Source of the DNA: Candidatus Latescibacterota bacterium
GTDB lineage: Bacteria; Latescibacterota; UBA2968
Reading direction: 5' to 3'
Assembly (NCBI GenBank): GCA_965222605.1
Contig: OZ244960.1
Span: 1,440,001-1,504,000 of the forward strand
Length of the DNA stretch: 64,000 nucleotides
In this document: positions 44,263-62,440 of the stretch, piece by piece
Layout of the letters: every line of letters starts with the position of its first letter
How positions within the stretch are numbered: position 1 is the stretch's first letter
Position numbers and translations under genes: made by a program
Notes under the pieces: generated by a model
Seen by the model: the letters and a program-made list of their open reading frames with translations, nothing else
Databases searched by the model: none
Told to the model about the DNA's origin: nothing

Positions 44263-44594
44263 ATTGGTGACCCAATTTCTAAATCCAAGGCAAATAAGAT
44301 AGCGTTTTTGATCTCTCTCATCACATTATCTGAAAGTTTGCCAAGCCTTCTTTCAAGCCGAACTTTCGGTACAGAACCGAGTCCCTGTACATTGGCATAA
44401 GAATCTTGATTCAGAAACCTCAACTTTGGCAGTACCACTTCGTAGGGACTTTCCCTGTATTGGGTTGTTAAAGGGATATAAGTTATCATAGCTCGTGGTG
44501 GGTCTGAATCGTAGCGAGATACCACGAGAACAGGTCGTGTTTTTGCAGCTAAACCGAGATCCGCTAGCCAGATCTCACCGGGTTGTGGGTTCAT
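44259..44594 (-). CDS. PemK/MazF-family toxin
   Basis: GEIWLADLG..AKTRPVLVVS, IPLTT. Confidence 0.9.
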   Translation of the reverse strand: MNPQPGEIWLADLGLAAKTRPVLVVSRYDSDPPRAMITYIPLTTQYRESPYEVVLPKLRFLNQDSYANVQGLGSVPKVRLERRLGKLSDNVMREIKNAILFALDLEIGSPI

Positions 44595-44760
44595 CGAGTA
44601 GATTCAAAACCTCCTGTTCTACGGAACGCGATTGCATTATATCCAGGACATCCTGGTCTGCGAGATCGATAATTTCCGCAATGCGTTCCCTAACTTCCAC
44701 TACAGTATTGGGTTTCCATTCGCGTAATTTTGCGTCTAATTTTTCAGCTAACACATCCAT
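44575..44760 (-). CDS. putative antitoxin
   Basis: 61-aa acidic ORF with GGAG RBS overlapping the toxin start. Confidence 0.7.
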   Translation of the reverse strand: MDVLAEKLDAKLREWKPNTVVEVRERIAEIIDLADQDVLDIMQSRSVEQEVLNLLDEPTTR

Positions 44761-44773
44761 TGCCTTTCCTCCA

Positions 44774-45061
44774 TTAGGCTGCTTGCGGTTTGACGTAAAC
44801 TTCGACTTGCATCCCCGCCAGCGTCAGCATATTAATCAATTTATCCACGCTAAACCGACGAATATCTCCCTGCATTAAATTACTAATGCGCGGCTGGGAT
44901 TCGCCAAAAAATGTAGCGGCTTGACTCTGGGTCCACCCCTTCGTTTCAATGTACTTTCTCAAGTCAAGCATTAAATCAGCCCGAACTTTTAAGCTCGCGG
45001 CTTCTTCCCGATCAAAACCGATATCTTCAAATACATTATCGCTTCCTTGAGTCACTTCCAT
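44774..45061 (-). CDS. XRE/HTH_37 (HigA-like) regulator
   Basis: GSDNVFEDIGF, TQ..AA..FG.SQPRIS.L..G.I..FS.DKL. Confidence 0.88.
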   Translation of the reverse strand: MEVTQGSDNVFEDIGFDREEAASLKVRADLMLDLRKYIETKGWTQSQAATFFGESQPRISNLMQGDIRRFSVDKLINMLTLAGMQVEVYVKPQAA

Positions 45062-45085
45062 AACGTCGTATCCTGTTCATTGGTT

Positions 45086-47489
45086 TTATGACGCTTCTTG
45101 ACCGAAGTCATTGGCAAAAATCAGAAAGTCACCAAATCCAATCACGCCATCGCCATCCAGATCAAACCGCGCGTCATACCCCTCATCGCCCCGACTTAAT
45201 CCGAACTGTGCTACAAAAAGCAAAAAGTCAGCAAAGCCAACAACACCGTCGCGATCAAAGTCGGGATTGGGGATTTGAGGAGCGATGTTAGACGACATAT
45301 CCCACAGCAAAACCGTGCCATCGTCTGCCCCCGAAGCGAGAGTTGTACCATCGGGCGAAAACGACACTGAACGGACCCAACCATTATGTCCAGCGAGGGT
45401 GGCGATATTTTCTCTTGTCACGACATCCCACATCAAAATCGTGCCATCGTTTCTCCCATAAGCGAGAGTTGTACCATCGGGCGAAAACGACACTGAGAAG
45501 GCCAAATTAGACGGAAGTGTGGTGATCTGTGTACCCGTCGCAACATCCCACAGGATGATCCCATCAGTATGCCCAGAAGCGAGAATTCCATCGCGAGAAA
45601 ACGAAAAAGAAAGCGGCCGCCCAAATCCAGTCTTTCTTGCGCTAAGGAGGGTATTCGTGCCTGTCGCCACATCCCATAGATTGAAGTCATGACCAAACCA
45701 CCCGGAAGCGATGGTTGTGCCGTCGGGTGAAAAAGCCACAATTTCAATTTCCTTCGGATTAGGTCCAAAGCTGGTGGATATTCGTCCCGTTTTCACATCC
45801 CATAGCTTAACCGTGGCATCGCTTGACCCGGAAGCGAGCATCGTCCCATCGGGCGAAAACGACACCGAAATGACCTGACTTGCAGTAGGTAGCAGCGCAA
45901 GGACACGAGACGTCGTCACTTCGTACAGCCACACGCCAATACCACTTGCCACAGCAAGGCGTTGCCCATCAGGCGAAAGCGTCACCGACTGACTGCTCTC
46001 GCCCAGGAGTCCTTTTCCCAAACTCAAGATTGCTCCATCGGGTAAATGCCATTTCTGAAGATCACCGTCCTCGCTTGGCGTAGTCAGCGTTCCAATACCC
46101 TTCGCATTAAATGTCACTGGCTCACGCCCAGCGATAGTTACTTCAACGATGTTTGCTCCCGGATTAGTACCAAGAGTAAGAATACTCTCTGCTCGACCAT
46201 TGGCATTGGTCGTTGTTTGCTCAAGGGAGAACTGACCGCTGAGTTTCCCATCGCCGGTGGTAACCATGAAGGTGACTTGTGCATCTGGTAGAGGGTTGCC
46301 GGACTGATCTCTGACTTCCACGATCAGGGGATGGGCCAACGTCGCCCCGGGCCTGGCCAGCTGCTCGTCGCCGGAGACTTTCATAATCGTTGGTAGCTCA
46401 GATGCATCTTCCGATAGTTTAAAAAATTCTAAGTTGATATTCCCGGCCATATCAACTGCTAAAACAAGGAACGGACAATTAGGAATTTGGGGAAAACCCG
46501 TAAAGCCAGAAAACCCAAAAAAACCCTTATAATCGAAAGTAACGACGGTATTTTTTTCTTCCATAAATCCACGACACTCCACCATCGCGGAGTATCCGTA
46601 GAAAGAAGATAGTAACACTTGATAAAGCCCATCTGAATCGCTGACTTCGAGTTGAATGGGGACGCTCTTTGAGCCTACTGAATACTCACGCGGTGAGATA
46701 AGTTTGATAGTGGGTGGTGGCGTCTCTTCAATTGGGATATCGGGATTGAAGTAGGGATGCACGGCCAAAAATTTGGCATGACAGGCAGATAACTGTGATT
46801 GACTCAATCCCAGGCCCCATACGACATGAGGTACGCGTTATCGCGGAAATCGTGATACAATCCAAAGGCATGCCCAAATTCATGTGCCGTTATATGTGTT
46901 ACATCCTCTACATATGCAATATAACGATGGGCAGGCATCGCGGCGAATCCACCAATTTTTCCCTGCGGCCTCCCCGCGGCGTGAACACTCCACTATTGTC
47001 AATGGCAACAAAGTAAATGTTTGCCTGTAGATCAAATACCTGTCCAATCTCCTCCTGTACAGTATAAAAAGGTTCGCCAAAATAGCCGCTATTGGGGTGT
47101 TGACCATCCACGCGATGAACCACCGGTTCATCCTGAGCATCGGTTTCAAAGCGAAAGGTCTTGCTCCCATACCCATGCGCCTGCATCTGTTCCGCATAAA
47201 AGGTCTGAACTCGGCGAATCGCAACTTTCATAGAATCAACCACTTCCTGACGAAAAGGACGATCATTGGGCAAGAAGTAGATCAATCGCACCGTGCGAGG
47301 TTCGCCTACGTTCAGATTCGCCAGTCGCTTGGCGGCAGGGCGCGGATGATCGCGCCGCCACTGCTCGTAATCGAACGGCAGACAGAAATGCACGCTATCG
47401 GCTGGTGAAGAAGCATAGACGGCAGCCATCGGCGAGAGCACGAGGATGACCAAGACAAAAAAGGCAGGATGAATAATGAATTTTTTCAC
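45086..47489 (-). pseudogene. exported metzincin peptidase + Ig-like + WD40 + EF-hand-like protein, split by two frameshifts
   Basis: The frame between the two listed ORFs (about 46815-46960) reads HEFGHAFGLYH...LMSY; WD40 repeats FSPDG.TLASG..D.TV.LWD; DFDRDG.VGF.DFL tail. Confidence 0.8.
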
Positions 47490-47515: not shown

Positions 47516-48541
47516 TTAAACCAAACCCGCCAATTCCTTCACAAACACTTCTGTATCTTCCCACCCCAGGCATGGATCAGTAATCGATTTCCCAAATATC
47601 CCCTCTTCGGGTTTTTGCGCGCCTTCCTCCAGATAACTCTCCACCATCAACCCGCGCACCACATTGTGAAGAAGCGAAGAATGGCGTCGGCTGCGCATCA
47701 CCTCCAGGCCAATGCGCGGCTGTTCGGAGAACGTTTTATTTGAATTGTTGTGATTGGTATCCACAATAATCGTCGGATTGCTCAGCTTCCGCGCCAGATA
47801 TTGCCCGGCAATATGGACCAAATCTTCGTAGTGATAATTGGGAAGACTTCGCCCGCTATATGCCACCCCGCGCAACACCGCATGCGTCAGCGAATTGCCC
47901 GACGTGCTAACTTCCCAACCATTGTGAAAAAACACATGCGGAATTTGTGCTGCATAAATGGCATTGAACATCACATCCAAATCCCCACCCGTTGGGTTTT
48001 TCATACCCGCAGGCACATCGACACCGCTAATAGTCAAGCGATGATTCTGATTTTCAACAGACCGCGCCCCCACGGCAATATAACTCAGCAAATCCTCCAC
48101 ATAAGGCAAATTCGAAGGATAGAGCATCTCATCGGCAGCCGTCAAATGCGACTCGCGAAAAGCGCGAATTTGCATCTTTCGAATGGTCTTAATCCCAACA
48201 ACCATATCGGGCGTACCTTCGGGATCGGGCTGGTGGGCCATGCCCTTATACCCCTCGCCAGTCGTGCGCGGTTTATTGGTATAAATCCGCGGCACGAGCA
48301 CCAATTTATCCACCACCTGCTCTTGAAGCCGCGCCAGGCGATTCACATATTCACACACCGCATCGACATTGTGGGCCGAGCACGGGCCAATAATCAACAA
48401 AAACTTATCGCTCTTGCGCTCAAAAATAGTCCGAATCTCGGCATCGCGTTCTTCTTTCTTAGCCTTCAAATCATCGGGCAGAGGCAAAGCGTCTTGGATT
48501 TCTTCCGCGCTGGGAATGGGCTGAATCCGTTTGAAACTCAT
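47516..48541 (-). CDS. aroG: DAHP synthase class I-alpha
   Basis: IGPCS, KPRT...YKG, GARS.ENQ.HR, KNPTGG, GLMVES, SITDPC; isoenzyme (aroF/G/H) not determinable. Confidence 0.92.
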   Translation of the reverse strand: MSFKRIQPIPSAEEIQDALPLPDDLKAKKEERDAEIRTIFERKSDKFLLIIGPCSAHNVDAVCEYVNRLARLQEQVVDKLVLVPRIYTNKPRTTGEGYKGMAHQPDPEGTPDMVVGIKTIRKMQIRAFRESHLTAADEMLYPSNLPYVEDLLSYIAVGARSVENQNHRLTISGVDVPAGMKNPTGGDLDVMFNAIYAAQIPHVFFHNGWEVSTSGNSLTHAVLRGVAYSGRSLPNYHYEDLVHIAGQYLARKLSNPTIIVDTNHNNSNKTFSEQPRIGLEVMRSRRHSSLLHNVVRGLMVESYLEEGAQKPEEGIFGKSITDPCLGWEDTEVFVKELAGLV

Positions 48542-48561: not shown

Positions 48562-48750
48562 CTGATGTTACGCATGTCTCGCGTTTCTGTCATGCTGAGG
48601 CGGGCGCAATGAATCTCCTGCGCCCAACACCCGATAGGCTGACGAAGCATCTTTTACCTATGCATATCGTTCAGGCAGCAGATTCTTCGACTCCGCTGCG
48701 CTCCGCTCAGAATGACAGGCGCATTATATTGTGCCTATGCGTAACGTCAG
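48562..48750. mobile_element. MITE-like element with nested inverted repeats
   Basis: Outer 14-bp IR ctgatgttacgcat/atgcgtaacgtcag (1 mismatch); inner 13-bp IR ctgtcatgctgag/ctcagaatgacag (1 mismatch). Confidence 0.65.
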
Positions 48751-49032
48751 TTACGACTCTGAATCTGCGTGATCTTCTTCCAACCGCAATGACTCATCGA
48801 TAATCTGTCTAAAAATGCGTTGCGCTGCTTCGTGACTCAAAGGACCGCCATTCAATTCGCGAATGCGGTTGAGAATCAGGGTTTCCCGTTCGGGGGCATG
48901 CAGGGGCAAACCCGTGGTACGCTTAATTTTTCCCACAGACAGGGCACACCGGGCACGCTCATTGAGCAACTCGAGAATCTGTTCATTTAAGGCATCGATT
49001 TTCTCGCGCCAGAAATCCAGATCCTTCTCCAT
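48751..49032 (-). CDS. chorismate mutase (AroQ type)
   Basis: R.KID.LN.QILELLNER...VG.IK...P.RE. Confidence 0.92.
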   Translation of the reverse strand: MEKDLDFWREKIDALNEQILELLNERARCALSVGKIKRTTGLPLHAPERETLILNRIRELNGGPLSHEAAQRIFRQIIDESLRLEEDHADSES

Positions 49033-49035: not shown

Positions 49036-49839
49036 CTACACACCTTCTCTCAAAGGGCCGATCAAAGACCCGACAAAAGCACCGACCTTTGAAACCAGAT
49101 CGACATCGTTTTGGTACTCTCCCACACGACGTACAATCGCGCTACCAACCACAACCGCATCGGCATACCGCGCAATTTCCGACACATGCTCAGGCGTTGA
49201 AATACCAAACCCAACGGCGATGGGCATATCTGTATGCTCGCATATCGCAGACACCTTATTTTGAATTTCATCGGCCAAAAAATCGCGTTCTCCCGTCACC
49301 CCGGTGCGCGATACATAATAGACAAAACCCCTGGTATGCGACACAATCATCTTCATCCGATCATCGCGCGTGGTAGGCGTCATGAGAAAAATCGTATCCA
49401 GCCCGTGTACATCCATCTGCGCTTTGTAATCGTCGCCCTCTTCCGGAGGCAAATCCAGTATCAGTACGCCATCTACCCCCACATCTGCGGCGCGTTTTAC
49501 AAAGCGCTCCACCCCATAGCGATGAATCGGATTATAATACGTAAACAGCACAATGGGGATTTCGGTCTCAGCCCGCAACTCTGCAACCATAGACAACACG
49601 CCCTCGAGCGTTGCACCTGCGGCCAAAGCGCGTTGTGACGCCTCCTGAATCACGGGGCCATCCGCCAAAGGGTCGGAAAAGGGAACACCCAATTCCAGGA
49701 CATCCACACCTCGCCGATCCAATTCCAATACTACCTGATGCGTAGTATTTAAGTCCGGATCGCCCGCCGTAATATACGCGACAAAGCCCGTCCTACCCGC
49801 TTTTCTCAAATCTTTAAACCGCTGTCCAATCCGCGTCAT
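49036..49839 (-). CDS. trpA: tryptophan synthase alpha chain
   Basis: [30 protein letters not shown]; ATGA overlap with trpB. Confidence 0.97.
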
Positions 49840-51041
49840 CTCATTCCTTCTATAAATCGCGCCGCTTGTTGCACATCTTTGTCCCCACGTCCCGATAAAT
49901 TGACAATCACAATCTGATCTCGACTCATCTCGGATGCCAACTTGCAAACATGCGCAATAGCGTGTGAACTCTCCAAAGCGGGAATAATCCCTTCGGTATG
50001 ACTGAGCAACTCAAAAGCACTGAGTGCTTCCTCATCCGTCGCATACGTATAAGCCGTGCGCGCCATATCCCGCAAATAACAATGCTCTGGCCCCACGCCC
50101 GAATAATCGAGACCCGCCGATACCGAATGCGTCAATGCGATTTGTCCATCATCATCTTGCAACACATAAATGCGCGCACCGTGCAAAACCCCCAAATCGC
50201 CACCATTAAACCGCGCAGCGTGCTCGCCAGACGCAATACCGTGACCGCCGGCCTCCACACCGATCATCTGCACATCGGCATCATCCAAAAAAGCGTGAAA
50301 CAACCCGATAGAATTGCTTCCCCCGCCCACACAGGCGACGAGCACATCGGGCAATCGGCCTTCTCTCTCCAAAATTTGAGCGCGGGCTTCAACGCCAATA
50401 ACCCGCTGAAAATCGCGCACAATCATCGGATACGGATGCGGTCCCAAAACCGAACCAAAGATGTAAAACGTATCCTCCACATTGGTCACCCAGTCGCGGA
50501 TGGCCTCATTAATCGCATCTTTCAGCGTTTTGCTACCCGAATGGACGCCCGTAACTTTCGCACCCAAAAGTCGCATGCGAAACACATTGAGCGCTTGCCT
50601 TTCCATATCTTCAACACCCATGTAAATTTCGCATTTGAGACCGAACATCGCCGCCACAGTTGCCGTTGCCACGCCGTGTTGACCGGCACCTGTCTCGGCA
50701 ATAATCCGCGTTTTGCCCATTCGGTTGGCGAGCAAAATCTGCCCCATGGCATGATTGATTTTATGCGCGCCCGTATGGGCGAGATCTTCGCGCTTGAGAT
50801 AAATTTTAGGCCCGCCGAGTTCTTCTGTCAACCGCTCGGCAAAATAAAGCGGCGTGGGTCGTCCGACATAATCGCACAAGTATCGATCCAGTTCAGCCCA
50901 AAACTCCGGATCGCGCTTTGCCTCCCGATAAGCCGCCTCCAGGTCTTGCAACAGCGCCATAAGCGTTTCGGGCACATACTGCCCACCATAAGGCCCAAAA
51001 TGCCCGCGCGCATCGGGCAAATCACTCGCGTTTACAGCCAT
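49836..51041 (-). CDS. trpB: tryptophan synthase beta chain
   Basis: [35 protein letters not shown]. Confidence 0.98.
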
Positions 51042-51054
51042 ATTGTATATCCCC

Positions 51055-52032
51055 TTAAATATCGCTAACCACACGGTCGTAAAATGCCAAATACTGCTCG
51101 CGGTCATCACCATCGAGCAATGCCATTGCCTCGCGGGGATGCTGGTTGTGCTGGCCGGTGATGTTATAGGGAACCAGAGGCCCCCACTTCATTTCTCGGC
51201 GCAACTTGACAAAATGATCCTCCAACAACCTATAGACCGGACGGATCTTAAACTTGGGATTCCGCAAAAAACCGAGCAACAATTCCATGGGACAATTGCC
51301 GGCACCGCGCCCCAATCCATCCACTGTGGCATCGACCCGATTGGCCCCTAAAATAATGGCCTCAATAGTATTGGCAAATGCCAGTTGCTGATTGTTGTGC
51401 GCGTGAATACCCACCTCTTTGCCCGTGCCTTTGGTTGCTTCCATATATTTTCGCACGAGCATATCAACTTGCTCGCGGTACAGAGCACCAAAACTATCCA
51501 CAACGCAAATCGTGCCCACAGGGGTTTGCATCAACACTTCTAATGCCTGATCAATCTCGACATCTTGCACAGTCGAAATCGCCATAATATTACAACTCGT
51601 TTCATACCCCTTCTCATGGGCATCGAGCAACATTTCAACCGTCTCGGGAATCTGCTCGACATAACACGCCACGCGCACCATATCGACCACACTCTCACTG
51701 GATGGCAGAATATCTTGAGCCCAATCGCTCTTGCCCGCATCGGCCATAATTGCGAGTTTCATCCCCGTCGCTTCGGGGTCGTGATCTCCCGTAATTTTGC
51801 GAATATCCTCTTCATCGCTGTGGCGGAACGTACCAAAATCTCTTTTGGGGAACATCTCCTTGGAATTTCGGTACCCAATTTCCATATAGTCAACACCCGC
51901 CGCGACACAGGTTTCATACACGGCTTTCACAAAATCATCATCAAAATGATGGTCATTCATCAAACCGCCATCGCGGATTGTACAATCGAGTACCTTGAGT
52001 TCCGGGCGGTAGGTAATCCAGGGTGCTTTCAT
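51055..52032 (-). CDS. DRE-TIM/HMGL-like aldolase (4-hydroxy-2-oxovalerate aldolase-like)
   Basis: [31 protein letters not shown]. Confidence 0.88.
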
Positions 52033-52134
52033 AAAAAAATCCTTCCTTTGGGGTTACGTAGTTGATCCAAATAAGTTCAGTGATCTGGCTCGTCAAAAAT
52101 CTGTCTTCTTTTGCCTATTGTAGCACCTACCCAG

Positions 52135-53418
52135 TCACACCAACCACCTCACCAAAAAGTAGCGGCGTTTGCCGCGGCGGATGACCAGATATTTTCCAGC
52201 CAGTCTTTCATCAGGCGTTAAGAGCCCGTGGCCCTCTTGCCAGCGCTGCCCATTGATATAAATGGCACCATTCCTGATATCTTCGCGCGCCTGCCGCCTG
52301 GACGATGAAATCCCGGCTCTCACGAGCAGATCAATCAGAATCACGCCACCTTCAGCATACAGAGTGCCTTTTCTTTCAACTTCATAAGACGGCACATCGC
52401 TACCAAATGCTTCTTCGATCTCCTGTTCATTCAAATCCTGCAAATTGCCGTAAAACAGCGCCTCGGAAATATGCACGGCGCGGGCCTTTGCGGCTGCACC
52501 GTGGATAAACGTCGTCACCTCTTCGGCCAGCACGCGCTGTGCCTCGCGCTTTTCGGGTCTCGCCTGCACTTCTCGTTCCAACTCTTCTATGCGTTCACGG
52601 CTCAAAAAAGTGAACAATTTTAAAAATTTCACCACATCGCGATCTGCTGCATTCACCCAAAACTGATAAAATTGATAGGGCGATGTCTTCTCGGGATCGA
52701 GCCATAATGTTCCCGTCTCGGTCTTCCCAAACTTTGTCCCATCCGACTTTTCCAGCAACGGGAAAGTCAACCCATACACAGTCTTATTGAGCATGCGCCG
52801 GCTCAGCTCTATACCCGCCGTAATATTGCCCCACTGATCGCTACCCCCAATCTGAAGCTCACAGCCATACTGTCGGTACAACTCCATAAAGTCATACGCC
52901 TGCAAGACCATATAACTAAATTCGGTAAACGAAATCCCGGTAGAAAGACGCGACGCCACCGACTCTTTGCCCAGCATATACCCCATTGAAAAGTGTTTGC
53001 CCACATCGCGCAAAAACTCAATCGTACGCAACTCTGAAAGCCAGGTATAATTGCTCACCATCTGCGCCGGATTGTGCACAGTCTCAAAATCCAAATACTT
53101 TTCCAACTGCTCCCGCTGACGCTCTGTATATCCCTGCACCACCTCCAATGAATTCAACTGTCGCTCTTCTGCTTTCCCACTCGGGTCGCCGATCAATCCC
53201 GTACCACCGCCCACGAGTGCAATGGGCTTGTGCCCCGCATCTTGAAAGCGGCGCAATCCCATAATAGGAACCAGACTGCCCGCATGCAGACTATCGGCTG
53301 TGGGATCAAATCCGCAATACAATGTCATCTGCCCCTCTGCCAAACGCCTGCGGAGCTTATCTTCATCTGTCATCTGAAAAATATAGCCACGAAATGCCAA
53401 ATCGTCTAATACATCCAC
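52135..53418 (-). CDS. tyrS: tyrosyl-tRNA synthetase
   Basis: YCGFDPTADSLHAG, QIGGSDQWGN, KFGKT, S4 domain. Confidence 0.98.
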   Translation of the reverse strand: MDVLDDLAFRGYIFQMTDEDKLRRRLAEGQMTLYCGFDPTADSLHAGSLVPIMGLRRFQDAGHKPIALVGGGTGLIGDPSGKAEERQLNSLEVVQGYTERQREQLEKYLDFETVHNPAQMVSNYTWLSELRTIEFLRDVGKHFSMGYMLGKESVASRLSTGISFTEFSYMVLQAYDFMELYRQYGCELQIGGSDQWGNITAGIELSRRMLNKTVYGLTFPLLEKSDGTKFGKTETGTLWLDPEKTSPYQFYQFWVNAADRDVVKFLKLFTFLSRERIEELEREVQARPEKREAQRVLAEEVTTFIHGAAAKARAVHISEALFYGNLQDLNEQEIEEAFGSDVPSYEVERKGTLYAEGGVILIDLLVRAGISSSRRQAREDIRNGAIYINGQRWQEGHGLLTPDERLAGKYLVIRRGKRRYFLVRWLV

Positions 53419-53439
53419 GTTTTTATCTCCATATTCATA

Positions 53440-54048
53440 TCACGCCTTTACGCGCGCCAAAAAATCCCTCACTTTTTTGTGATCCTTCTTCCCCGGCTCG
53501 GCTTCTACGCCACTACTCGTATCCACCGCATAGGGACCAACTCGCTCAATCGCCTCCTGAACATTATCCGGATTTAGCCCACCGGAAAGAATAATGCGCC
53601 CATACCCTTTTGCCTCCACCGCCTTTATCCAGTCAAATGTCTTTCCCGTACCGCCGTAAGAACCCGCTCTCTCTGTATCCAATAAGAATGTATTGACCAG
53701 ATATGATCGCATGATCTGCACATCAAAATCGCGTCCCACGCGAAGCGCGCGAATCACAGGAACCGCATGCCCCAGACATGCTTCGGGAGGTTCATCCCCG
53801 TGCAATTGAATCGCCCGTAGCCCCGCCAACTTCACGGCAATATCAATCTCCCGCTCCGACGCATTCACGAACACCCCGACGGGCGTCACAAACGGCGGCA
53901 AATCAAAAACAATTTCTCCTGCTTTTTCGGGCGCGATATAGCGAAGACTCTTCTCATAAAAAATAAACCCCAGAGCATCTGCGCCATTATCAATCGCGCA
54001 TAGCGCATCATCCCGATTTGTAATCCCGCAAATTTTAGCTCGTACCAT
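53440..54048 (-). CDS. trpF: phosphoribosylanthranilate isomerase
   Basis: KICGIT, QLHGDE, GGTG.TFDW, GGL.P.NV, SSGVE..PG.KD. Confidence 0.97.
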   Translation of the reverse strand: MVRAKICGITNRDDALCAIDNGADALGFIFYEKSLRYIAPEKAGEIVFDLPPFVTPVGVFVNASEREIDIAVKLAGLRAIQLHGDEPPEACLGHAVPVIRALRVGRDFDVQIMRSYLVNTFLLDTERAGSYGGTGKTFDWIKAVEAKGYGRIILSGGLNPDNVQEAIERVGPYAVDTSSGVEAEPGKKDHKKVRDFLARVKA

Positions 54049-54829
54049 ACCCTATCAACTCCTGCAACTTGGCGGCAATATCCGATTCGCGCATCAAACT
54101 CTCGCCCACCAGCACGGCATCTGCACCCGCATCTCGAAGTGCGACAACATCCTCGCGCGTATAAATACCACTCTCGCTCACCGTCAACACGTCATCGGGG
54201 ATGTGATCGATCAACCCATAAGTCATATCCAGAGACGTATCAAAAGTTTTCAAATTTCGATTATTAATTCCAACAATCTCCGCACCCGCATCGAGCGCGA
54301 CCATCAGTTCTTCCCGCTCATGCACCTCCACCAGTGCATCCAGACCCAGCGCACGGCTCGTCGCTATAAATGAGGACAATTCTTCGGGCGTTAAAATCGA
54401 CACAATCAACAACACAGCCGAAGCCCCAATCGCGCGCGCTTCGTAAATCTGATAGGGATCAATCGTGAAATCCTTTCGCAAAATGGGCCGATCAACAACT
54501 GTTGAAATCTGAGTTAAATAATCCACCGAACCCTGAAAAAATTTCTCATCCGTCAATACCGAAAGCGCCGAAGCCCCATTTCTCACATAAATTTTCGCAA
54601 TACCCACCGCGTCAAAATCCCCGCGAATCACGCCCTTAGACGGCGATGCTTTTTTTACCTCGGCGATCACAGCAATATCGTCCCCATCTATCAGCCCATC
54701 AAAAAACGAAGGCGATCCTGGCGCATCTTCCGCCAACCGCGCCATCTCCTCAAACGGTGTCTGCGTCATACACCTGGCGAGGAACTCGCGTTTATACGCC
54801 ACAATTTTATCGAGAATATTGCTGGCCAT
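54035..54829 (-). CDS. trpC: indole-3-glycerol phosphate synthase
   Basis: IAEVKKASPSKG, SVLTD, LRKDF, GINNRNL, SESGI. Confidence 0.97.
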   Translation of the reverse strand: MASNILDKIVAYKREFLARCMTQTPFEEMARLAEDAPGSPSFFDGLIDGDDIAVIAEVKKASPSKGVIRGDFDAVGIAKIYVRNGASALSVLTDEKFFQGSVDYLTQISTVVDRPILRKDFTIDPYQIYEARAIGASAVLLIVSILTPEELSSFIATSRALGLDALVEVHEREELMVALDAGAEIVGINNRNLKTFDTSLDMTYGLIDHIPDDVLTVSESGIYTREDVVALRDAGADAVLVGESLMRESDIAAKLQELIGYGTS

Positions 54830-54854
54830 AAAGTCCCACCATCCTCAGACAGGG

Positions 54855-55919
54855 CTAAAGCCACGACCGCGGGTCGGGAACAGACACCCATCCATTTTCG
54901 CGCACCGCCTGCAACCCCGCAATACCGGGCAGTGTCATATCCAGCGCCTGCATCAAATCTATCGGTGGTGGCGATCCATTCACAATCGCCTGCACAAAAT
55001 CCAAAACAATGAGCATACTCGTTTTGCCATGCCCCGCACCGAGCGCGCCCGAAAACTGGGGCAACTCGGGATGGCAACATTCTTCTCGCGTCACCTGCTC
55101 CTTATCGTCCAGAGAATAATAACACACCGTTCGTGCTTCGCGAAATCGCCCCGTCTCGAAAGAACCTTCATCGCCATAAAAACTCAAAAAATGGCTCATC
55201 CCATGCACATTCTGAAACGAATTTGTCAACCTGAACACCGCGCCGTCTGCAGTACGGAACAAAGCCGTCTGCACCCAGTCTGCTTCATACCCTTCTAAAA
55301 ATTCATCTCGCCCTGAAGCCGAAACAGCCATGACCTCAACCAAACGGTCGCCCGTCATCTTCAAATACGGCGATGTCCCATGTGTCGGATAAATAAGGGG
55401 TTGTAAACTATTCCGCCAGGTGGGTCGCCCATCGGGATGTCGCCTCAACGCTTTTAGACCGTGAATATACTCGGCCTCGGCATAGTAAATACGCCCCAGT
55501 TTCCGCGCTTCAAAAAGTGACCTGGCACGCACCACACTGGGTTCATAGATCCAATTCTCCGCCATCATATAAATGCGGTCACTTTTTGAAACGACCTCAA
55601 CCAATGCCTTTGCTTCATCCATTGTCAGCGCAGCGGGCACGGCACACAAAACGTGCTTACCAGCCCGAATCGCTCGAATCACATGTTCTGCATGAAGCGG
55701 CGCGGGAGTAAAAACAGCCACCGCGTCAATCCGTTCATCAGCGACAAAATCATCAAAAGCCGCATAACAAGCATCGACACCCAACAGCTCTTTCGCCTGA
55801 CCGCGTCTCTCCTGCTGGATATCACAAATAGCGACCAAATCAGTCTCGGCATACGCATCAAATACCCGCGCCCAGGACATGCCAAATCGCAAACCCGCAA
55901 CACCTACCGAGAGACCCAT
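54855..55919 (-). CDS. Gfo/Idh/MocA-family oxidoreductase
   Basis: Rossmann start, TPAPLHA, AGKHVLCAVP (variant of EKP), YMMAEN. Confidence 0.88.
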   Translation of the reverse strand: MGLSVGVAGLRFGMSWARVFDAYAETDLVAICDIQQERRGQAKELLGVDACYAAFDDFVADERIDAVAVFTPAPLHAEHVIRAIRAGKHVLCAVPAALTMDEAKALVEVVSKSDRIYMMAENWIYEPSVVRARSLFEARKLGRIYYAEAEYIHGLKALRRHPDGRPTWRNSLQPLIYPTHGTSPYLKMTGDRLVEVMAVSASGRDEFLEGYEADWVQTALFRTADGAVFRLTNSFQNVHGMSHFLSFYGDEGSFETGRFREARTVCYYSLDDKEQVTREECCHPELPQFSGALGAGHGKTSMLIVLDFVQAIVNGSPPPIDLMQALDMTLPGIAGLQAVRENGWVSVPDPRSWL

Positions 55920-55942
55920 TTTACCTCACTCCATCTCGAAAA

Positions 55943-56956
55943 TCATTCCTGGCTCGCTTCTTTCAACCCTTCCAACTTCTCCAACGCCTTGCCCGAATCA
56001 ATCACTTCAGCCGCGACCTGCACACCTTCTTGTAAATCACGCGCCTTATCTCCCGCCACAATTGCCGCAGCCGCATTCAACAACACTATATCGCGCCGAG
56101 GACCTTCTTCGCCATTCAGAATCGACCGCGTAATCTCTGCATTATAATCGGCATCCCCTCCTTTTAGCGCGTCGGCTGTGGCTTGTCCCAGCCCAAAGTC
56201 CCCAGGTGATACGTCATACGTCGAAACCGATCCAGCCTTCAATTCGCTCACCTTCGTTGGACCTGTCAACGTCATCTCATCCAAACCATCCAAACCGTGA
56301 ACGACAAACGCGCGCTCAGATCCCAGAGTTGCCAAAACACCCGCGAGTGTCTCGGTCAATGCCGCGCTGTAAACGCCGACCACCTGCCGCTTTGCACCCG
56401 CCGGATTGCTCAGCGGTCCCAGCGCATTGAAAATTGTCCGCGCACCAATTTCCCGACGCGGCCCAATCGCGTATTTCATCGCCCCGTGCAATGAAATGGC
56501 GAACAAAAACCCGATACCCACATCGTCCAGACACCTGCTCACCGTCTCGGGCGATGCCTCAATATTCACACCCAATGCACTCAGCACATCCGCACTGCCA
56601 CTTTGACTCGTCGCCGCGCGATTGCCGTGTTTGGCCACACACAAACCCGCCCCAGCCGCGACAAATGCCGCCGTTGTCGAAATATTAAATGTGCCCGAAT
56701 GATCGCCCCCCGTGCCACAAGTATCGACAATCACATCGTGCTTTGTCACAATAGGCGTCGCCTTCTCGCGCATCACAGACGCTGCCCCGGCAATCTCATC
56801 AACACTCTCGCCCTTCACGCGCAACGCAATCAAAAACGCACCAATCTGCGCGTCCGTCGCCTCGCCCGACATAATCTGATTCATCGCATCCGTCATCTCA
56901 CCTCGGTGCAAATCTTCGCCTTCGATCACTTTTGCAATTGCTTCTTGTATAGTCAT
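55943..56956 (-). CDS. trpD: anthranilate phosphoribosyltransferase
   Basis: DTCGTGGD..TFNIST, KHGNR, SGSADVL, DGLDE. Confidence 0.97.
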   Translation of the reverse strand: MTIQEAIAKVIEGEDLHRGEMTDAMNQIMSGEATDAQIGAFLIALRVKGESVDEIAGAASVMREKATPIVTKHDVIVDTCGTGGDHSGTFNISTTAAFVAAGAGLCVAKHGNRAATSQSGSADVLSALGVNIEASPETVSRCLDDVGIGFLFAISLHGAMKYAIGPRREIGARTIFNALGPLSNPAGAKRQVVGVYSAALTETLAGVLATLGSERAFVVHGLDGLDEMTLTGPTKVSELKAGSVSTYDVSPGDFGLGQATADALKGGDADYNAEITRSILNGEEGPRRDIVLLNAAAAIVAGDKARDLQEGVQVAAEVIDSGKALEKLEGLKEASQE

Positions 56957-56978
56957 GCTCAGCTCCTCGGGTAACAAA

Positions 56979-57542
56979 TCACGTATCGAGAAAGTTTTGC
57001 AGCAAATTCTTACCTTCACCCGTCAAAATCGATTCGGGATGAAACTGCACGCCATCTATCGCCATATCTCGATGGCGCAAACCCATAATCACGCCATCAT
57101 CGGTCTCAGCCGTAATCTCCAGACAAATGGGAAGACTTTTCCGCTCCACCACCAGCGAATGGTAGCGCGTGGCAATAAACGGATCGGGTAGTCCCTCAAA
57201 AATAGACTGCCCTCTATGATGAATCTCCGACACCTTCCCGTGCATAATTGTCGGCGCGCCCACAATTTTCCCGCCAAATGCCTGCCCAATGGACTGATGC
57301 CCCAGACAAACCCCTAAAATCGGAATTTTCCCCGCAAAATGCTGTACCAAAGCCACGGAAATCCCCGCTTCATTTGGTGTGCATGGCCCGGGAGAAATAA
57401 CGATCTTCTCGGGCGCGATATCCGCAATCTCTTCAAGTGAGATTTGATCATTGCGATGCACCACCAACTCCGCACCCAGTTCCCCGAGATATTGAACGAG
57501 GTTATAAGTAAAAGAATCGTAATTATCAATGACGAGAATCAC
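56979..57542 (-). CDS. trpG: anthranilate synthase component II
   Basis: [27 protein letters not shown]. Confidence 0.95.
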
Positions 57543-59014
57543 AACAACTCTCCTCCTTCAGCCATTTCTACCGCCCGAAACAGTGCCCGCGCTTTGTTCA
57601 CAGTCTCCTCATATTCGTATTCCGGCTCTGAATCGAACACCACGCCACCCCCTGCCTGCACATACGCTTTGCCATCCTTAATCACCAGCGTGCGAATGGC
57701 AATACACGTATCCATATTGCCCGCAAAATCGATATAACCCACCGCACCGGCATAAGGCCCGCGGCGCGTTGACTCCATCTCGTCGATAATCTCCATCGCC
57801 CGAATTTTTGGCGCGCCCGACACCGTGCCAGCCGGATAACAGGCAAAAAGCGCGTCCAGCGCATCGACACCCTCGTGCAATTCGCCGCGCACATTCGAAA
57901 CAATATGCATCACATGCGAATAGCGTTCAATCGACATCTGCTCGGTCACGCGCACCGTATCAAACCTGGAGACACGCCCCACATCATTGCGCCCCAAATC
58001 CACTAGCATAATATGCTCGGCGCATTCTTTTTTATCGGCCAACAAATCCTCTGACAGCACCTGATCCTCTGCCTCTGTTTTGCCGCGCCACCGCGTACCC
58101 GCAATGGGCCGCACCTGCACCACTCCGTCCTCTACCCTGACGAGCAACTCGGGCGACGCACCCACCAATTGATGGTCCTTCAAATCGACGTGAAACATAT
58201 AAGGCGACGGATTCACCGTCCGCAACGCCCGATAAATATCCAGCGCATCCACCGTCACATCCATTGCAAAGCGCTGCGAAGGCACCACCTGAAAAATATC
58301 ACCGGCCACAATGTATTCCCTGCAACGCGCCACCACATCCATATACGCTTCTTTGCTCGTATTTGAAGTCACCTCGCACGAACTCGTGCCCGATTTCAGA
58401 GACGCATCCACCGGTTGCGCCAGTGCCTCAATCAGTGTATCAATCCGTTTGACTGCATCTGCGTAATTCGCCTCCAGGTCGCCCTCTGTATGCACATTGG
58501 TCATCACATGCACTTTGTGCGTCACATTGTCAAAAGCCAGCACTGAATCGTAAAATGACAAAAATATATCGTCCAGACCGAGATCGTCTTCAACCGTCTC
58601 GGGAATGCGCTCAATCAAACGCACGGCATCATAGCTCACATAGCCCACCGCACCACCCGTAAATCGAGGAAACCCTTCTACGTGTTGCGAGTGGTATTTT
58701 TTTAACAACCCGCGCAATTCCTCAATTGGCTTCCCATCAAATTTTCGCACCTCACCCGTCGTCGTATGTTCAATCGAAATTTTTGTTCCGCGCGAACGAA
58801 AAATCAGAAATGGATCCACGCCCAAAAACGAATACCGCCCAATCTGCACACCGCCCACCACACTTTCAAACAAAAACGCATGCGATGATCTGGCGCGAAT
58901 TTTCAAATAGGCCGAAACGGGCGTCTCTGTATCCGCGAGAAGTTCTCTTGAAATGGGAATCAGACCACAGCCTTCGCTCAGCTTCTTCACAGTTTTGAAA
59001 TCGGGTTGAATCAC
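57539..59014 (-). CDS. trpE: anthranilate synthase component I
   Basis: [37 protein letters not shown]; AAGGA RBS before GTG 59014. Confidence 0.96.
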
Positions 59015-59026
59015 TGGAAAATCCTT

Positions 59027-59066
59027 AAAAAAATAAAAAAGGTCGTGAGCAGTTTGCCCACGACCT
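59027..59066 (-). terminator. attenuator terminator
   Basis: AGGTCGTGGGC-aaact-GCTCACGACCT then TTTTTATTTTTTT, 13 bp before trpE. Confidence 0.9.
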
Positions 59067-59092
59067 CGTACTTTCATTCACTTACATCACAC

Positions 59093-59197
59093 TTAACACG
59101 CAGGACAAACCACACTCTTGGACGGGCGGCGATAATAATAATATCGACCGTCAAATCGACGCCAAAAATACCAAAAATGGGTTGCAAAAGCGTTCAT
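59093..59197 (-). CDS. attenuator leader peptide rich in Phe/Trp/Tyr (34 aa)
   Basis: MNAFATHFWYFWRRFDGRYYYYRRPSKSVVCPAC*; AAGGA RBS; lies between a promoter and the terminator. Confidence 0.88.
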   Translation of the reverse strand: MNAFATHFWYFWRRFDGRYYYYRRPSKSVVCPAC

Positions 59198-59238
59198 CAC
59201 ACCAAATTCCTTAAACAAGAGTTATGTCAGATGCGCCA

Positions 59239-59268
59239 AAGATAACAAATTCTAAAACAAATTGTCAA
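59239..59268 (-). promoter_or_regulatory. sigma70 promoter of the trp/aro cluster
   Basis: TTGACA-18 bp-TATCTT with extended -10 TG. Confidence 0.7.
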
Positions 59269-59277
59269 GTAGGAAGT

Positions 59278-60048
59278 TTATTCGTGGCCGTCAATCGTGC
59301 CCACCTCAATTTTCAACTCATCGCGGTCAATAATGCGATCTACGCGGCCATCGCGCACCCACACCACGCGGTCGGATACCGACAGCATCTTGTGATCGTG
59401 CGTCGCTGAAATCACGGTCACGCCCGACTCCTCGTTCATCCGGCGCAACAACTCAATAATCTCCCGCCCCGTATTCAAATCGAGATTTCCAGTCGGCTCG
59501 TCAGCCAGAATAATCGCTGGATCGTTGGCAAAGGCCCGCGCAACAGCCACGCGTTGCTGCTGACCACCTGAAAGCTCATAAGGCTTGTGCATCACGCGCT
59601 CGCCCAGACCGACCTGTGTCAACAACCCTACGCCCTTGTCGCGCGCCTCGTCGCTCGTCAGCCCGGCAAACACCATCGGCAGGGTCACATTCTCAAGCGC
59701 CGTCATCACCGGAATCAAATTATAAGATTGAAAAATATAACCGATCTTTCGGCAGCGCAACCACGCGAGTTCATAAGCGTCGAGTTGGGCGACATCTACA
59801 TCGTCGATATAAACCTTGCCTTCGGTCGGCTTGTCCAATCCACCCACCATATTAAACAGAGTACTCTTCCCCGAACCAGAAGGTCCCATGATGGACAGGT
59901 ATTCGCCCTGCGTCACTTCCAGATCCACTCCTCTGAGTGCGTGAATCTGCTCTTCGCCCATTATGTACACCTTCTTCACATCTTGCGTGCGTACAATAGT
60001 TGCCTGTTCGGCCTCTGCATTTGTTTCTGTTTTTTCTTCGGCAGCCAT
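59278..60048 (-). CDS. ABC transporter ATP-binding protein (LolD/MacB-like)
   Basis: GPSGSGKST, LSGGQQQRV, LADEPTGNLD. Confidence 0.95.
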   Translation of the reverse strand: MAAEEKTETNAEAEQATIVRTQDVKKVYIMGEEQIHALRGVDLEVTQGEYLSIMGPSGSGKSTLFNMVGGLDKPTEGKVYIDDVDVAQLDAYELAWLRCRKIGYIFQSYNLIPVMTALENVTLPMVFAGLTSDEARDKGVGLLTQVGLGERVMHKPYELSGGQQQRVAVARAFANDPAIILADEPTGNLDLNTGREIIELLRRMNEESGVTVISATHDHKMLSVSDRVVWVRDGRVDRIIDRDELKIEVGTIDGHE

Positions 60049-60074
60049 AAAATACCTCACAATCAGTTTGTCAT

Positions 60075-60746
60075 TTAAACTTCCAAAGACATCGCATCAA
60101 CCGGCTCCATCTTGGCAGCGCGATAGGCCGGCAAAATGCCACCAATCAGCGACAAAAAAGAACCAATGACAATAGCTTTAACACCATCTTGAAGGATTTG
60201 AACCATGGGAAGATGATCGAAAATCACCGTACCAAAACTCGACATATTGAGCAATGCAGTCAGCAAAAACCCAACGATCACGCCAATAACCGTGCCCGCT
60301 GCACCCATAAACGTCGATTCGAGAATAAATAACTTAATAATAAATCCGTCCAATGCGCCCATACACTTCATAGTGCCAATCTCGCGGAACCGCTCCGTAA
60401 CAGACATCAGCATGGCATTGGCAATACCCACCAGACACACGAGCAGCGACAACACCACCAGCCATGCATCTTTTGACCGTTGCTGGATTGCGGCGGCACT
60501 ATCGGGATCAATTTCAACGCCCTTTTGTTGCAAGATCAAATTGATCTTGGGATCACTGGCAGCCATCAAACCGTCAATAATGGAATTGCCTGCCCAAATC
60601 GACATCAAAAAAGCGATGGCAAGCACAATACCACTCACCGTAATCAAAGACCGGCCAAATCGGATCTTAACGCTATTAAAACTGATCTCAACCGCTTTGG
60701 AAAGCGGAAGAGATATCTGGGTATTGAGTTCGCGCTGCTCTGCCAT
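60075..60746 (-). CDS. FtsX/MacB-like ABC permease with short periplasmic loop
   Basis: GIANAMLMSVTERFREIGTMK..GA, PAYRAAK.EPV.A. Confidence 0.9.
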   Translation of the reverse strand: MAEQRELNTQISLPLSKAVEISFNSVKIRFGRSLITVSGIVLAIAFLMSIWAGNSIIDGLMAASDPKINLILQQKGVEIDPDSAAAIQQRSKDAWLVVLSLLVCLVGIANAMLMSVTERFREIGTMKCMGALDGFIIKLFILESTFMGAAGTVIGVIVGFLLTALLNMSSFGTVIFDHLPMVQILQDGVKAIVIGSFLSLIGGILPAYRAAKMEPVDAMSLEV

Positions 60747-60787
60747 AAACGCCTCCAGTTTCAAAAAAATTGCACAAACCGCTGCTC

Positions 60788-60816
60788 AACATAAAAGCCA
60801 ATTGCCCCTCTGTCAA
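60788..60816 (-). promoter_or_regulatory. sigma70 promoter candidate
   Basis: TTGACA-17 bp-TATGTT. Confidence 0.6.
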
Positions 60817-60831
60817 GCCAAAATACCAGAC

Positions 60832-61551
60832 TTATTTATTATCGGCGTTGCCCTTTTTTCGCAAAAAATAGAATGTCAACAATTGCTTCATAAACAAATA
60901 GTACTCAGTCCAGTTCAATTTGCTGCTACTATATTGCCGGTTGCGAAACACAAAGGGCACCTCTATAAAAGACTTATAATGCCCCTTGACCAGAATCTCC
61001 AGCAAAATTTTATACCCCGGGGAAGTCAATGCCATGTTTTTAATAACGCGCCGATGCAAAAAGAAATAGCCCGCCAGTGGGTCTTGCACGCCAGTTAATT
61101 GCCGGGCGAGAAATACTCCCAATTGAGAAATAATTCTGCGGTACCAGGCCCATTGTTCGACGTGACTATCCGCATCAAATCGGCTGCCAATAGCCAGATC
61201 GTGATCTCGCAACCCGTAAATGAGCTGAGGCAAAACAATGGGATCGTGGCTCAAATCGGCATCTATCACCCCCAAAAGATCCCGCTCTGCCCGCTCAAAC
61301 CCCGCCATCACAGCACTGCCCAATCCCAATTTTCCTGCGCGGTGAACCACCTGCACCGGATAGCGATCCACGAGTGATTCGGCCACCTCTCCCGTGCTAT
61401 CGGGCGAATTATCATCAACCACAATCAATTCGAGATCGATGTCGGGATAGTCTTTCAGAACGTCGAATATTTCTTCCACCAATAAAGAAATATTCTCGCG
61501 CTCGTTATAGGTGGGCGTAATCAGAGAAATGTGGAGTTTATTATCAGACAT
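60832..61551 (-). CDS. GT2 polyprenol-phosphate mannose synthase-like glycosyltransferase
   Basis: PTYNE.EN, VDDNSPD, DADLSH, GSR, GYKILLE. Confidence 0.92.
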   Translation of the reverse strand: MSDNKLHISLITPTYNERENISLLVEEIFDVLKDYPDIDLELIVVDDNSPDSTGEVAESLVDRYPVQVVHRAGKLGLGSAVMAGFERAERDLLGVIDADLSHDPIVLPQLIYGLRDHDLAIGSRFDADSHVEQWAWYRRIISQLGVFLARQLTGVQDPLAGYFFLHRRVIKNMALTSPGYKILLEILVKGHYKSFIEVPFVFRNRQYSSSKLNWTEYYLFMKQLLTFYFLRKKGNADNK

Positions 61552-62440
61552 AGGTATTAGCGATCTTGTGAAAAACGCCCTTTAGTTGTCTCAAATTATG
61601 CTCAAAAGAGGCAGGTACAATATCACATAATGTTCTGGCGAGTGCGGTTGTCAACCCGGCTCGCAGCGGGCGCTGTGCGAACTGCCCAAATTCTGCAGAA
61701 GTGATGGCAGACACCAGCGAAAAATCAAGCCCCATCACCGCACAAATCTGCTCAACCATTTCAAAACGCGTCAAAAAATCCGCCCCGCCAAAATGCACCA
61801 CACCGCGGAAGTCAGTGCGGCAAAGTTTTAAGATAAATGCGGCAAGCTCATCGACAAAAGTCGGATTTGCCCACTCGTCTGTCACCACGCGAATCGCCTC
61901 TCGCTCCGCCAGCGATGAAATGGCCCAGGTCACAAAATTGGGCCGACAAGACGGGTGAAAACCGTACAGTACCGCCGTTCGCACCACAATGCCGGGGCAA
62001 AGTGCATTCAATAGAATAACTTCGCTTTCTAACTTGGTCTGCCCATACACATTCACCGGGTGTGCTTCATCGACCTCGGCATAAGGCCCTTTCTTTCCAT
62101 CAAACACGTAATTGGTCGATAAGTTTACCAGACCACATCCAACTCGTTCACACGCTTGAACCAGATTGCGCGTTCCATCGACGTGTATCGCACGCGCAAG
62201 CGCGGGATTTCGCTCGCATCCATCAACGCTTGTCATAGCTGCCGAATTGATCACCCACTGAGGGCGCACCTGTGCTACCACCTCGTGTACCGAAGCGGGC
62301 TGTGTCAAATCTACGACGAGATGACCCTTTTGACCGCTACGCGACGCAGGTGTCCGCTCCCAATCATCGCAGGATACATCGCAAAGTGCGTGTCCCAAAA
62401 AACCCGATACGCCGACAATGAGCAACCGGTTATTAGCCAT
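61544..62440 (-). CDS. dTDP-4-dehydrorhamnose reductase (RmlD)-like SDR
   Basis: GVSGFLG, AAMT.VD.CE, ST.YVFDG, YGQTK; TAATG overlap with the upstream gene. Confidence 0.9.
   Translation of the reverse strand: MANNRLLIVGVSGFLGHALCDVSCDDWERTPASRSGQKGHLVVDLTQPASVHEVVAQVRPQWVINSAAMTSVDGCERNPALARAIHVDGTRNLVQACERVGCGLVNLSTNYVFDGKKGPYAEVDEAHPVNVYGQTKLESEVILLNALCPGIVVRTAVLYGFHPSCRPNFVTWAISSLAEREAIRVVTDEWANPTFVDELAAFILKLCRTDFRGVVHFGGADFLTRFEMVEQICAVMGLDFSLVSAITSAEFGQFAQRPLRAGLTTALARTLCDIVPASFEHNLRQLKGVFHKIANTYV

Follow-up and report, generated by a model that had tools for sequence, protein, structure and literature searches.

Attenuation of transcription by leader peptides is known mostly from Proteobacteria and Actinobacteria, where a leader usually answers to one amino acid. 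Multivalent leaders precede the ilvGMEDA (Leu/Val/Ile) and thr (Thr/Ile) operons of enterobacteria and have been tested experimentally. TnaC makes a different use of a leader peptide: W, D and P stand at fixed spacing, with the stop codon right after Pro, upstream of a catabolic operon. Here we describe a leader locus directly in front of trpE in a 64,000-nt stretch of the genome of a Candidatus Latescibacterota bacterium, the whole of which we call the window. The locus is very probably a classical, ribosome-mediated leader-peptide transcription attenuator of a supraoperon of trp, tyrS and aro genes, and its 34-codon open reading frame (ORF) carries codons for all three aromatic amino acids.

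The general scheme of trpL attenuation is outlined in the passages of PMC1183508 that deal with it. Closer in codon content is the aroR leader before aroF of Corynebacterium glutamicum (Neshat et al. 2014), which, as treated in the relevant part of PMC11802643, has Phe-Tyr-Phe codons and responds to Phe, not to Tyr. Genes for aminoacyl-tRNA synthetases (aaRS) also have leader-peptide attenuators: pheM-pheST of Escherichia coli is known, and those of trpS and leuS of Streptomyces are predicted in the section of PMC1262725 concerned with them. A literature search with subscription journals largely outside its reach returned no Latescibacteria attenuator, no three-aromatic leader and no leader-peptide control of tyrS. 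As far as that search reaches, the mixed aromatic leader, the embedded sole tyrS, the codons that track the operon's cargo and the setting in an uncultured phylum are new in print. A preliminary description of this DNA had set the locus against leaders that sense mainly one amino acid; the contrast overlooks the multivalent ilvGMEDA and thr leaders as well as aroR, and the locus is less novel than it implied.

The leader ORF, its terminator and their conservation

All coordinates of the leader, the switch and the operon refer to the minus strand of the window. Between 59268 and 59012 the elements follow one another in the order promoter, ribosome-binding site (RBS), 34-codon ORF, hairpin, T tract, AAGGA and GTG start of trpE. 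Strands 1 to 4 are numbered as in a classical attenuator.

59239–59268, minus strand: sigma-70-type promoter; TTGACA (59268–59263), an 18-nt spacer and TG-TATCTT, with the −10 element at 59244–59239
59208–59212, minus strand: Shine–Dalgarno sequence AAGGA, 10 nt 5′ of the leader ATG, conserved in the genus alignment
59093–59197, minus strand: leader ORF MNAFATHFWYFWRRFDGRYYYYRRPSKSVVCPAC, 34 codons and stop; ATG at 59197–59195, TAA at 59095–59093
59162–59176, minus strand: first presumed regulatory block, codons 8–12, UUU UGG UAU UUU UGG (FWYFW), overlapping strand 1
59132–59143, minus strand: second presumed regulatory block, codons 19–22, four UAU (Tyr), in the loop of a small hairpin
59171–59185, minus strand: strand 1 (GCAACCCAUUUUUGG), partner of strand 2 in minimum-free-energy folds of the untranslated RNA
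59121–59152, minus strand: internal hairpin GACGGUCGAUA...UAUCGCCGCCCGUC, with the Tyr codons in its loop in the minimum-free-energy fold
59099–59121, minus strand: strand 2, inside codons 26–33; its 5′ part pairs with strand 1
59099–59111, minus strand: 3′ part of strand 2, GGUUUGUCCUGCG, which pairs with strand 3 to give the antiterminator
59039–59067, minus strand: intrinsic terminator, 13 bp, −20.7 kcal/mol; strand 3 at 59067–59055, loop AAC, strand 4 at 59051–59039
59027–59038, minus strand: T tract of the terminator, read from the sequence
57539–59014, minus strand: trpE, the first structural gene, with a GTG start and RBS AAGGA at 59026–59022 (TIGR00564, E 7e-179)

The promoter-like site matches the consensus at 10 of 12 positions, with TG preceding the −10 element. 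The genus alignment shows it kept in those members that share the upstream gene, a LolD-like ABC ATPase whose stop lies at 59278. Transcription would start near 59232–59225, about 35 nt before the leader ATG. The leader peptide has four Phe, two Trp and five Tyr among its 34 residues, and in the ORF listing its frame is also open from an upstream TTG (59218). Aromatic residues account for 7.6% of the 6528 codons of 20 window genes; the binomial probability of finding at least 11 of them in 34 codons is 2.8e-5, uncorrected for the number of small ORFs. The T tract ends 12 nt before the trpE GTG (59014), so that transcription of the operon must pass through the terminator. A translatable ORF with an RBS, enrichment of cognate codons and an intrinsic terminator before the first gene, the components of a classical attenuator, are therefore all present. 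A cmscan of 56000–62000 at E values up to 10 found no Rfam leader family, RF00513 included, and returned three unrelated matches at chance level. The promoter, the RBS, the 34-residue ORF at 59197–59093, its aromatic composition and its FWYFW and YYYY blocks had all been named in the preliminary description and are confirmed from the sequence. So is the strong terminator, with its stem and T tract, save that it had been placed 13 nt from trpE.

To see how widely the arrangement occurs, 87 trpE upstream regions of the phylum were scanned for a Trp-containing, aromatic-rich ORF followed by a hairpin and a T run. Leader and terminator were accepted in 65 of them; of the remainder, 5 doubtful regions were set aside, 15 gave no hit with this filter and 2 were of insufficient length. 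Accepted leaders are spread over families f1 (28/29), f2 (20/21), f4 (3/3), f3 (10/14), f7 (1/1), f8 (2/4) and f11 (1/2), and the same filter accepted none in f6 (2 loci), f9 (2), f10 (8) and f14 (1). A W-[YW]-W core recurs across the leaders of the phylum; the filter demanded a Trp codon, so the constancy of Trp in all 65 is built in.

Within the genus of the window (20 sequences) ORF and terminator are nearly invariant. F8-W9 is kept in all 20 members, F11 in 19, Y10 and W12 in 18 each; YYY is found in every member and YYYY in 13. Insertions and deletions between codon 1 and the Tyr block measure 3 or 6 nt in the genus alignment and so stay in frame. Where a 6-nt deletion removed W12, in a single member, a new Trp codon stands five codons on, and at least two Trp codons are present in 19 of the 20. 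Five members with a different upstream gene retain the leader. In one sequence (L017) the C-terminal reading frame is changed, whereas strand GGUUUGCCC persists in the RNA, closely followed by a stop; this indicates that the C-terminal part of the leader is conserved as RNA, not as protein. Within the order, relatives have neither lost the ORF nor reduced it to Trp codons: every genus there keeps a mix of F, W and Y, as the proposal of a mixed leader had implied.

RNA data were available as assembled metatranscriptome contigs (sampled-word shares 0.13–0.19), which show neither ends nor levels. The near-identical contigs come from runs labelled sponge metatranscriptomes. One of 155 nt covers 59072–59225 without differences, and its start at 59225 is no proof of a transcription start. 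In two studies contigs stop at 59067, 59070 and 59072, at the foot of the terminator, with no loose end recorded at that place, and none of those three runs covers the hairpin; a contig of a relative of about 92% identity bridges 58654–59400. We count these contigs as no evidence for termination or for the start site.

Alternative RNA helices and the proposed switch

The minimum-free-energy fold of 59235–59015 (−66.4 kcal/mol, z −3.34, equalled by 0 of 200 shuffles) holds the 1:2 helix, the Tyr-codon hairpin and the terminator. The 1:2 helix together with the hairpin that it encloses contributes −24.6 kcal/mol. In the competing 2:3 helix (−11.1 kcal/mol), GGUUUGUCC.GCG of codons 29–33 pairs with CGU.GGGCAAAC of the terminator 5′ arm and loop. 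For this helix the RNA was cut before strand 4, at the terminator loop, and the ribosome footprint was masked. The 2:3 helix then forms with the A site at every position from codon 1 to codon 25, fades from about codon 27 and is gone with the ribosome at the stop. All 11 aromatic codons fall at codons 4–22, within the zone where a stall leaves strand 2 free. Modelled in this way, the antiterminator has the geometry of a classical attenuator: its 5′ strand would be free on a stall at the regulatory codons and covered at the stop. The pairings had earlier been read by eye. Of these, 1:2, 3:4 and the hairpin over the Tyr run stand in the minimum-free-energy fold, and 2:3 appears under the cut and the masking (the preliminary description had itself suggested the masking), forming for stalls at codons 1–25 and lost near the stop.

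The same parts are found in relatives. All 22 genus representatives have a strand 2 of at least 7 nt at the 3′ end of the ORF, mostly a few nt before the stop, and in 21 of them the terminator is present in the free fold. Across 50 sequences 97.4% of the terminator cells are paired, compared with 33–49% in slid controls; 7 of its 10 pairs show changes on both sides, and its covariation score was reached by 0 of 500 shuffles. The antiterminator was counted on separate alignments for two groups of families, since MAFFT set strand 2 of f3 about five columns off the pairing register. It is paired in 80.5% of cells in f1, f2 and f4 and in 81.4% in f3 and the other classes, against 28–55% with the partner columns slid, and in the second group four of nine pairs have changed on both sides. 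Between families strand 2 goes from UGCCCAC to GCGUCC, strand 3 from GUGGGCA to GGACGC and strand 4 from UGCUCAC to GCGUYC. The three strands change together, which means that strand 2 mimics strand 4 in each lineage. Moreover, the duplexes formed by a leader's own strands 2 and 3 are more stable than cross-family ones (−17.7 versus −14.7 kcal/mol; 0 of 5000 permutations).

Several observations weigh against such a switch. The core of the antiterminator is invariant in f1, f2 and f4, where one of ten pairs has changed on both sides and shuffles are not clearly beaten. The window's own 2:3 pair is no better than foreign ones (−13.5 against a mean of −13.4 kcal/mol), and among the 22 genus representatives just 14 have a free fold in which upstream sequence ties up 60% or more of strand 2. 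At equilibrium, with the whole terminator present, the terminator wins with a probability of about 0.97 at every masked ribosome position. Because equilibrium always favours the terminator, any switching has to be a matter of kinetics, as it is in the textbook attenuator. A further measure, the mean probability that the terminator 5′ arm pairs upstream, was computed for 60 leaders and rejected as non-discriminating, shuffled controls reaching 0.4–0.65; its sole consistent signal is a drop with the ribosome at the stop codon.

The small hairpin around the Tyr codons has a stem built from the Arg codons on either side (CGA...UCG), and folds of other genera show similar hairpins with an Arg stem and a Tyr loop (CCGG UAUUA CCGG). 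The classical model leaves it unexplained; our guess is that it might act as a pause site for RNA polymerase or as a brake on the ribosome.

We propose that the locus works as follows. A shortage of charged tRNA-Trp or tRNA-Tyr, and perhaps of tRNA-Phe, would stall the ribosome at codons 8–12 or 19–22. The stalled ribosome would cover strand 1 or hold it away, and strand 2 would pair with the terminator 5′ arm and loop. RNA polymerase, no longer stopped, would read on into trpE...tyrS...trpBA and probably into the chorismate mutase gene and aroF. With all three tRNAs charged, the ribosome would reach the stop and cover strand 2, and the 13-bp terminator would end transcription short of trpE. 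Without translation the 1:2 helix would form, and the terminator as well. Ribosome stalling, the switch itself and the identity of the amino acids sensed are what we infer here.

Amino acids that may be sensed and the cargo of the operon

The genes behind the leader bear on the question of which amino acids it may read:

49036–57542, minus strand: trpG, trpD, a GFO/IDH-type oxidoreductase gene, trpC, trpF, tyrS, an HMGL-like gene, trpB and trpA, with short gaps or overlaps
52135–53418, minus strand: tyrS, the only one in the window and the sole copy in the genome above the family cut-off
48751–49032, minus strand: chorismate mutase, type II (PF01817)
47516–48541, minus strand: DAHP synthase gene aroF (NF009395/TIGR00034), after a 209-nt spacer that follows the chorismate mutase gene

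The last two genes, whose order is kept across two families, are probably co-transcribed with the trp and tyrS genes. Further downstream, after an insertion, lie tyrA, aroA and aroE. Gene-family matches thus bear out the earlier statement that the cluster holds trp, tyrA, tyrS, chorismate mutase and shikimate genes. Gene order was compared between the window and 31 context loci. The tyrS gene stands after trpF in 12 of 12 context loci of f1 (5 genera), f2 (5 genera) and the f4 genus g13. In f3 a trpS match follows trpC in all nine loci (9 genomes, 7 genera), five of them confirmed as TIGR00233, and the clusters are without trpF, trpBA and DAHP synthase. Clusters of the f4 genus g16, of f7 and of f8 have no synthetase gene. 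The codon content of the leaders in these three classes, with the proteins of the window as background, is as follows:

tyrS in the operon (11 genus representatives): W 4.6%, Y 12.9%, F 10.1%
trpS in the operon (6 representatives): W 9.9%, Y 5.5%, F 4.9%
no aaRS gene (5 representatives): W 8.6%, Y 5.7%, F 7.9%
background (window proteins): W 0.8%, Y 2.8%, F 4.1%

In the tyrS group Trp is enriched 5.9-fold over background, Tyr 4.6-fold and Phe 2.5-fold. In f4, the leader reads FYYYWRFY where tyrS is present (g13) and AYWWE where there is no aaRS gene (g16). From these comparisons the codon content of the leader appears to track the synthetase gene of the operon, Tyr-rich with tyrS and Trp-rich with trpS. 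Both TAT and TAC are used across genera, which indicates that the amino acid is kept and not the letters; TAT and TTT are the codons that the genome prefers, so that rare-codon tuning is not involved. The Tyr codons of the leader are likely to be functional. Since leaders are Tyr-rich with tyrS and Trp-rich with trpS, and the sole tyrS lies inside this operon, sensing of Trp together with Tyr is the reading that we consider probable.

Sensing of all three amino acids is possible but doubtful, and Phe is the weakest of the three. Phe codons are scattered, none of them consecutive; F4 is replaced in 6 of the 20 genus members; a leader of a trp-only operon (L183) carries four Phe codons; and no gene of the operon is specific to Phe. 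The preliminary description had proposed a single switch that integrates all three aromatic tRNAs. The comparison of cargo and codons upholds its Tyr beside Trp; Phe is the less well supported part, and three-way integration remains conjectural. Tentatively, one switch may read the charged-tRNA pools of Trp, Tyr and Phe, its codon content having been reprogrammed in evolution to suit the cargo. Lineages with tyrS and DAHP synthase would have gained Tyr runs and Phe codons, while the trpS family kept or expanded its Trp runs.

The most substantial rival holds that the attenuator answers to Trp alone, with Tyr and Phe codons either incidental or maintained for the sake of RNA structure (U-rich codons, the UAU-loop hairpin) or of peptide properties. 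All 65 accepted leaders have Trp codons as their one shared feature, though the filter demanded them. W-Y-W, a single Tyr between Trp codons, and several Phe codons occur even before the trp-only operons of f8, and among the few leaders of operons that lack an aaRS gene, Phe content does not follow cargo neatly. A conserved small hairpin, also found in folds of other genera, encloses the Tyr codons, and part of the reason for their retention might be structural. As the groups are clades of shared ancestry, the association of cargo with codons amounts to about two independent contrasts. In the model of Elf and Ehrenberg, as presented in the relevant portion of PMC1183508, mixing of regulatory codons lowers the sensitivity to each amino acid. 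For aroR of C. glutamicum, the part of PMC11802643 that treats this leader gives Tyr supply as without effect despite the Tyr codon, so the presence of a codon is no proof of sensing. Yet it is only with tyrS in the operon that Tyr reaches 4.6-fold enrichment and outnumbers Trp; with trpS in place of tyrS, the enrichment of Tyr is 2-fold. Runs of two to four Tyr codons are kept in frame across genera, written in both synonymous codons, and the Tyr block is placed where a stall would still free strand 2. Control by Trp alone would also leave the cell's only tyrS governed by the supply of Trp. We regard it as unlikely, and favour an attenuator that reads Tyr beside Trp.

Two other readings dispense with codon sensing altogether. 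The nascent peptide could be the sensor or effector, either through TnaC-like arrest by a free amino acid in the exit tunnel or through a function in trans. An R-W-[YW]-W-R-R-F motif is indeed kept at the amino-acid level across families, and Arg is enriched 2.2–2.3-fold in the tyrS and trpS groups of leaders (1.5-fold, not significant, without an aaRS gene). The leader peptide also has W12 and D16 at the spacing of TnaC. Only two genera keep the D and P positions, however, the W/D/P motif is absent from the f2 leaders, and Pro stands at position 25, followed by nine more codons, rather than before the stop. TnaC is induced by excess and depends on Rho, a logic opposite to the need of a biosynthetic operon such as this one. 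We therefore rejected a TnaC-type arrest peptide and take the W12/D16 spacing for a coincidence confined to two genera. Leader peptides that act in trans do exist (PMC7298713), as is reported for peTrpL of Sinorhizobium. Here the C-terminal peptide is not conserved as protein, the frame change in L017 keeping the RNA, and both the intrinsic terminator and the position of strand 2 agree with the classical race model; a peptide-based mechanism is very unlikely. We give next to no credence to the remaining reading, a chance ORF followed by a hairpin that ends transcription of the upstream ABC-ATPase gene. The terminator does lie downstream of that gene, and one RNA-library contig runs from the gene through the ORF. 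The 12 nt between T tract and trpE nevertheless leave no room for a separate trp promoter, and a strong promoter follows the ATPase gene, ahead of the ORF. Where another gene lies upstream, ORF and terminator still accompany trpE, as they do across the phylum; in-frame indels and the mimicry of strand 4 by strand 2 are unexpected for a chance ORF. Neither a trp promoter downstream of 59027 nor loss of the ORF from close relatives was seen. Conservation across relatives, as judged from the sequences compared, is the decisive point against chance.

Other loci of the same genome offer further observations. A trpS-like gene (G000:C1:1203430-1203860, minus strand) is a 248-residue frame that matches positions 2–187 only of the trpS model. 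Two small ORFs with Trp codons only precede it, ...RGWWSAVWVC and ...GGRWWWTGAMGDVCPPP..., together with three tandem terminator-like hairpins. In the second ORF a UGG run pairs with the 'VCPPP' codons, and there is no stop before the terminator, which points to a different mechanism or to an assembly error. Upstream regions of the genome's main trpS, pheA and pheS, inspected by eye, showed no leader. A crude genome-wide scan for leaders before terminators, made without gene calls and too noisy to show absence, gave no His, Leu, Thr or Phe leader that stood out.

The operon and its surroundings have features of their own. A second type of TyrRS occupies the tyrS slot in three genera (L073 5123-6346, L077 8380-9591 and L078 5052-6575). 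These proteins are 28–34% identical to the TyrRS of the window, and both types pass TIGR00234; this suggests that the synthetase gene may have been replaced in place while the Tyr-rich leader stayed. Between trpD and trpC, the GFO/IDH/MocA oxidoreductase gene (54855–55919) is found in the window only, among 32 loci compared. The HMGL-like (aldolase-type) gene (51055–52032), between tyrS and trpB, is also present in genera g9 and g6. The spacer between the chorismate mutase gene and aroF contains a 38-nt element (TGTCATTCTGAGCGGAGCGCAGCGGAGTCGAAGAATCT; 48680–48717, minus strand), which has 10 copies in the genome at up to 5 substitutions, on both strands, and is a small dispersed repeat. An insert of about 3.2 kb (44259–47489) separates aroF from tyrA and is absent there in the relatives compared, aroF and tyrA being adjacent in other genera. 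It encodes a putative metallopeptidase-like ORF, a 573-residue TolB-like beta-propeller protein and a PemK/MazF-type toxin ORF (44594–44259).

Implications and comparison with described attenuators

The locus extends leader-peptide attenuation across the uncultured phylum Latescibacterota, to the extent that the attenuator reading holds, and mixes all three types of aromatic codon in one leader before a joint trp–tyrS–aro operon. Related families that differ both in cargo and in leader codons offer comparative evidence that the extra codons may be functional. If this is true, the cell's only TyrRS gene would be the first tyrS known under leader-peptide attenuation. The families would then offer a natural series in which to follow the rewriting of attenuator specificity as genes join an operon, and the leaders could serve synthetic biology as compact and portable sensors of the charging of aromatic tRNAs. 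Annotation that relies on gene callers and Rfam misses a 34-codon gene and a regulatory RNA of this kind.

The closest likeness is to trpL-trpE of E. coli and Salmonella. Both leaders are short ORFs in which Arg comes after two Trp codons. In both, the 1:2, 2:3 and 3:4 helices exclude one another, an intrinsic terminator stands immediately 5′ of trpE, and the stop codon is set such that the ribosome covers strand 2. Unlike trpL, the leader described here has 34 codons with five Tyr and four Phe beside its two Trp, encloses an extra hairpin in the 1:2 loop and gives no match to Trp_leader RF00513; the operon adds tyrS, chorismate mutase and DAHP synthase to the trp genes, and the host is uncultured. 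With the ilvGMEDA and thr leaders it shares codons of several related amino acids in a single leader, although those serve the branched-chain or the Thr/Ile family and not the aromatic one. Like the pheST, trpS and leuS leaders, it pairs an aaRS gene with the codons of that enzyme's own amino acid, tyrS with Tyr here and trpS with Trp in a sister family. Unlike theirs, its aaRS gene is embedded among the genes of a biosynthetic operon and has the operon's leader in common with them. Mixed aromatic codons before a gene of the common aromatic pathway are a trait that it has in common with aroR, to go by what PMC11802643 says of that leader. By the same account aroR has three regulatory codons and precedes aroF, and C. 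glutamicum has a separate trpL with Trp codons only, whereas here one leader with all three codon types stands before a joint operon.

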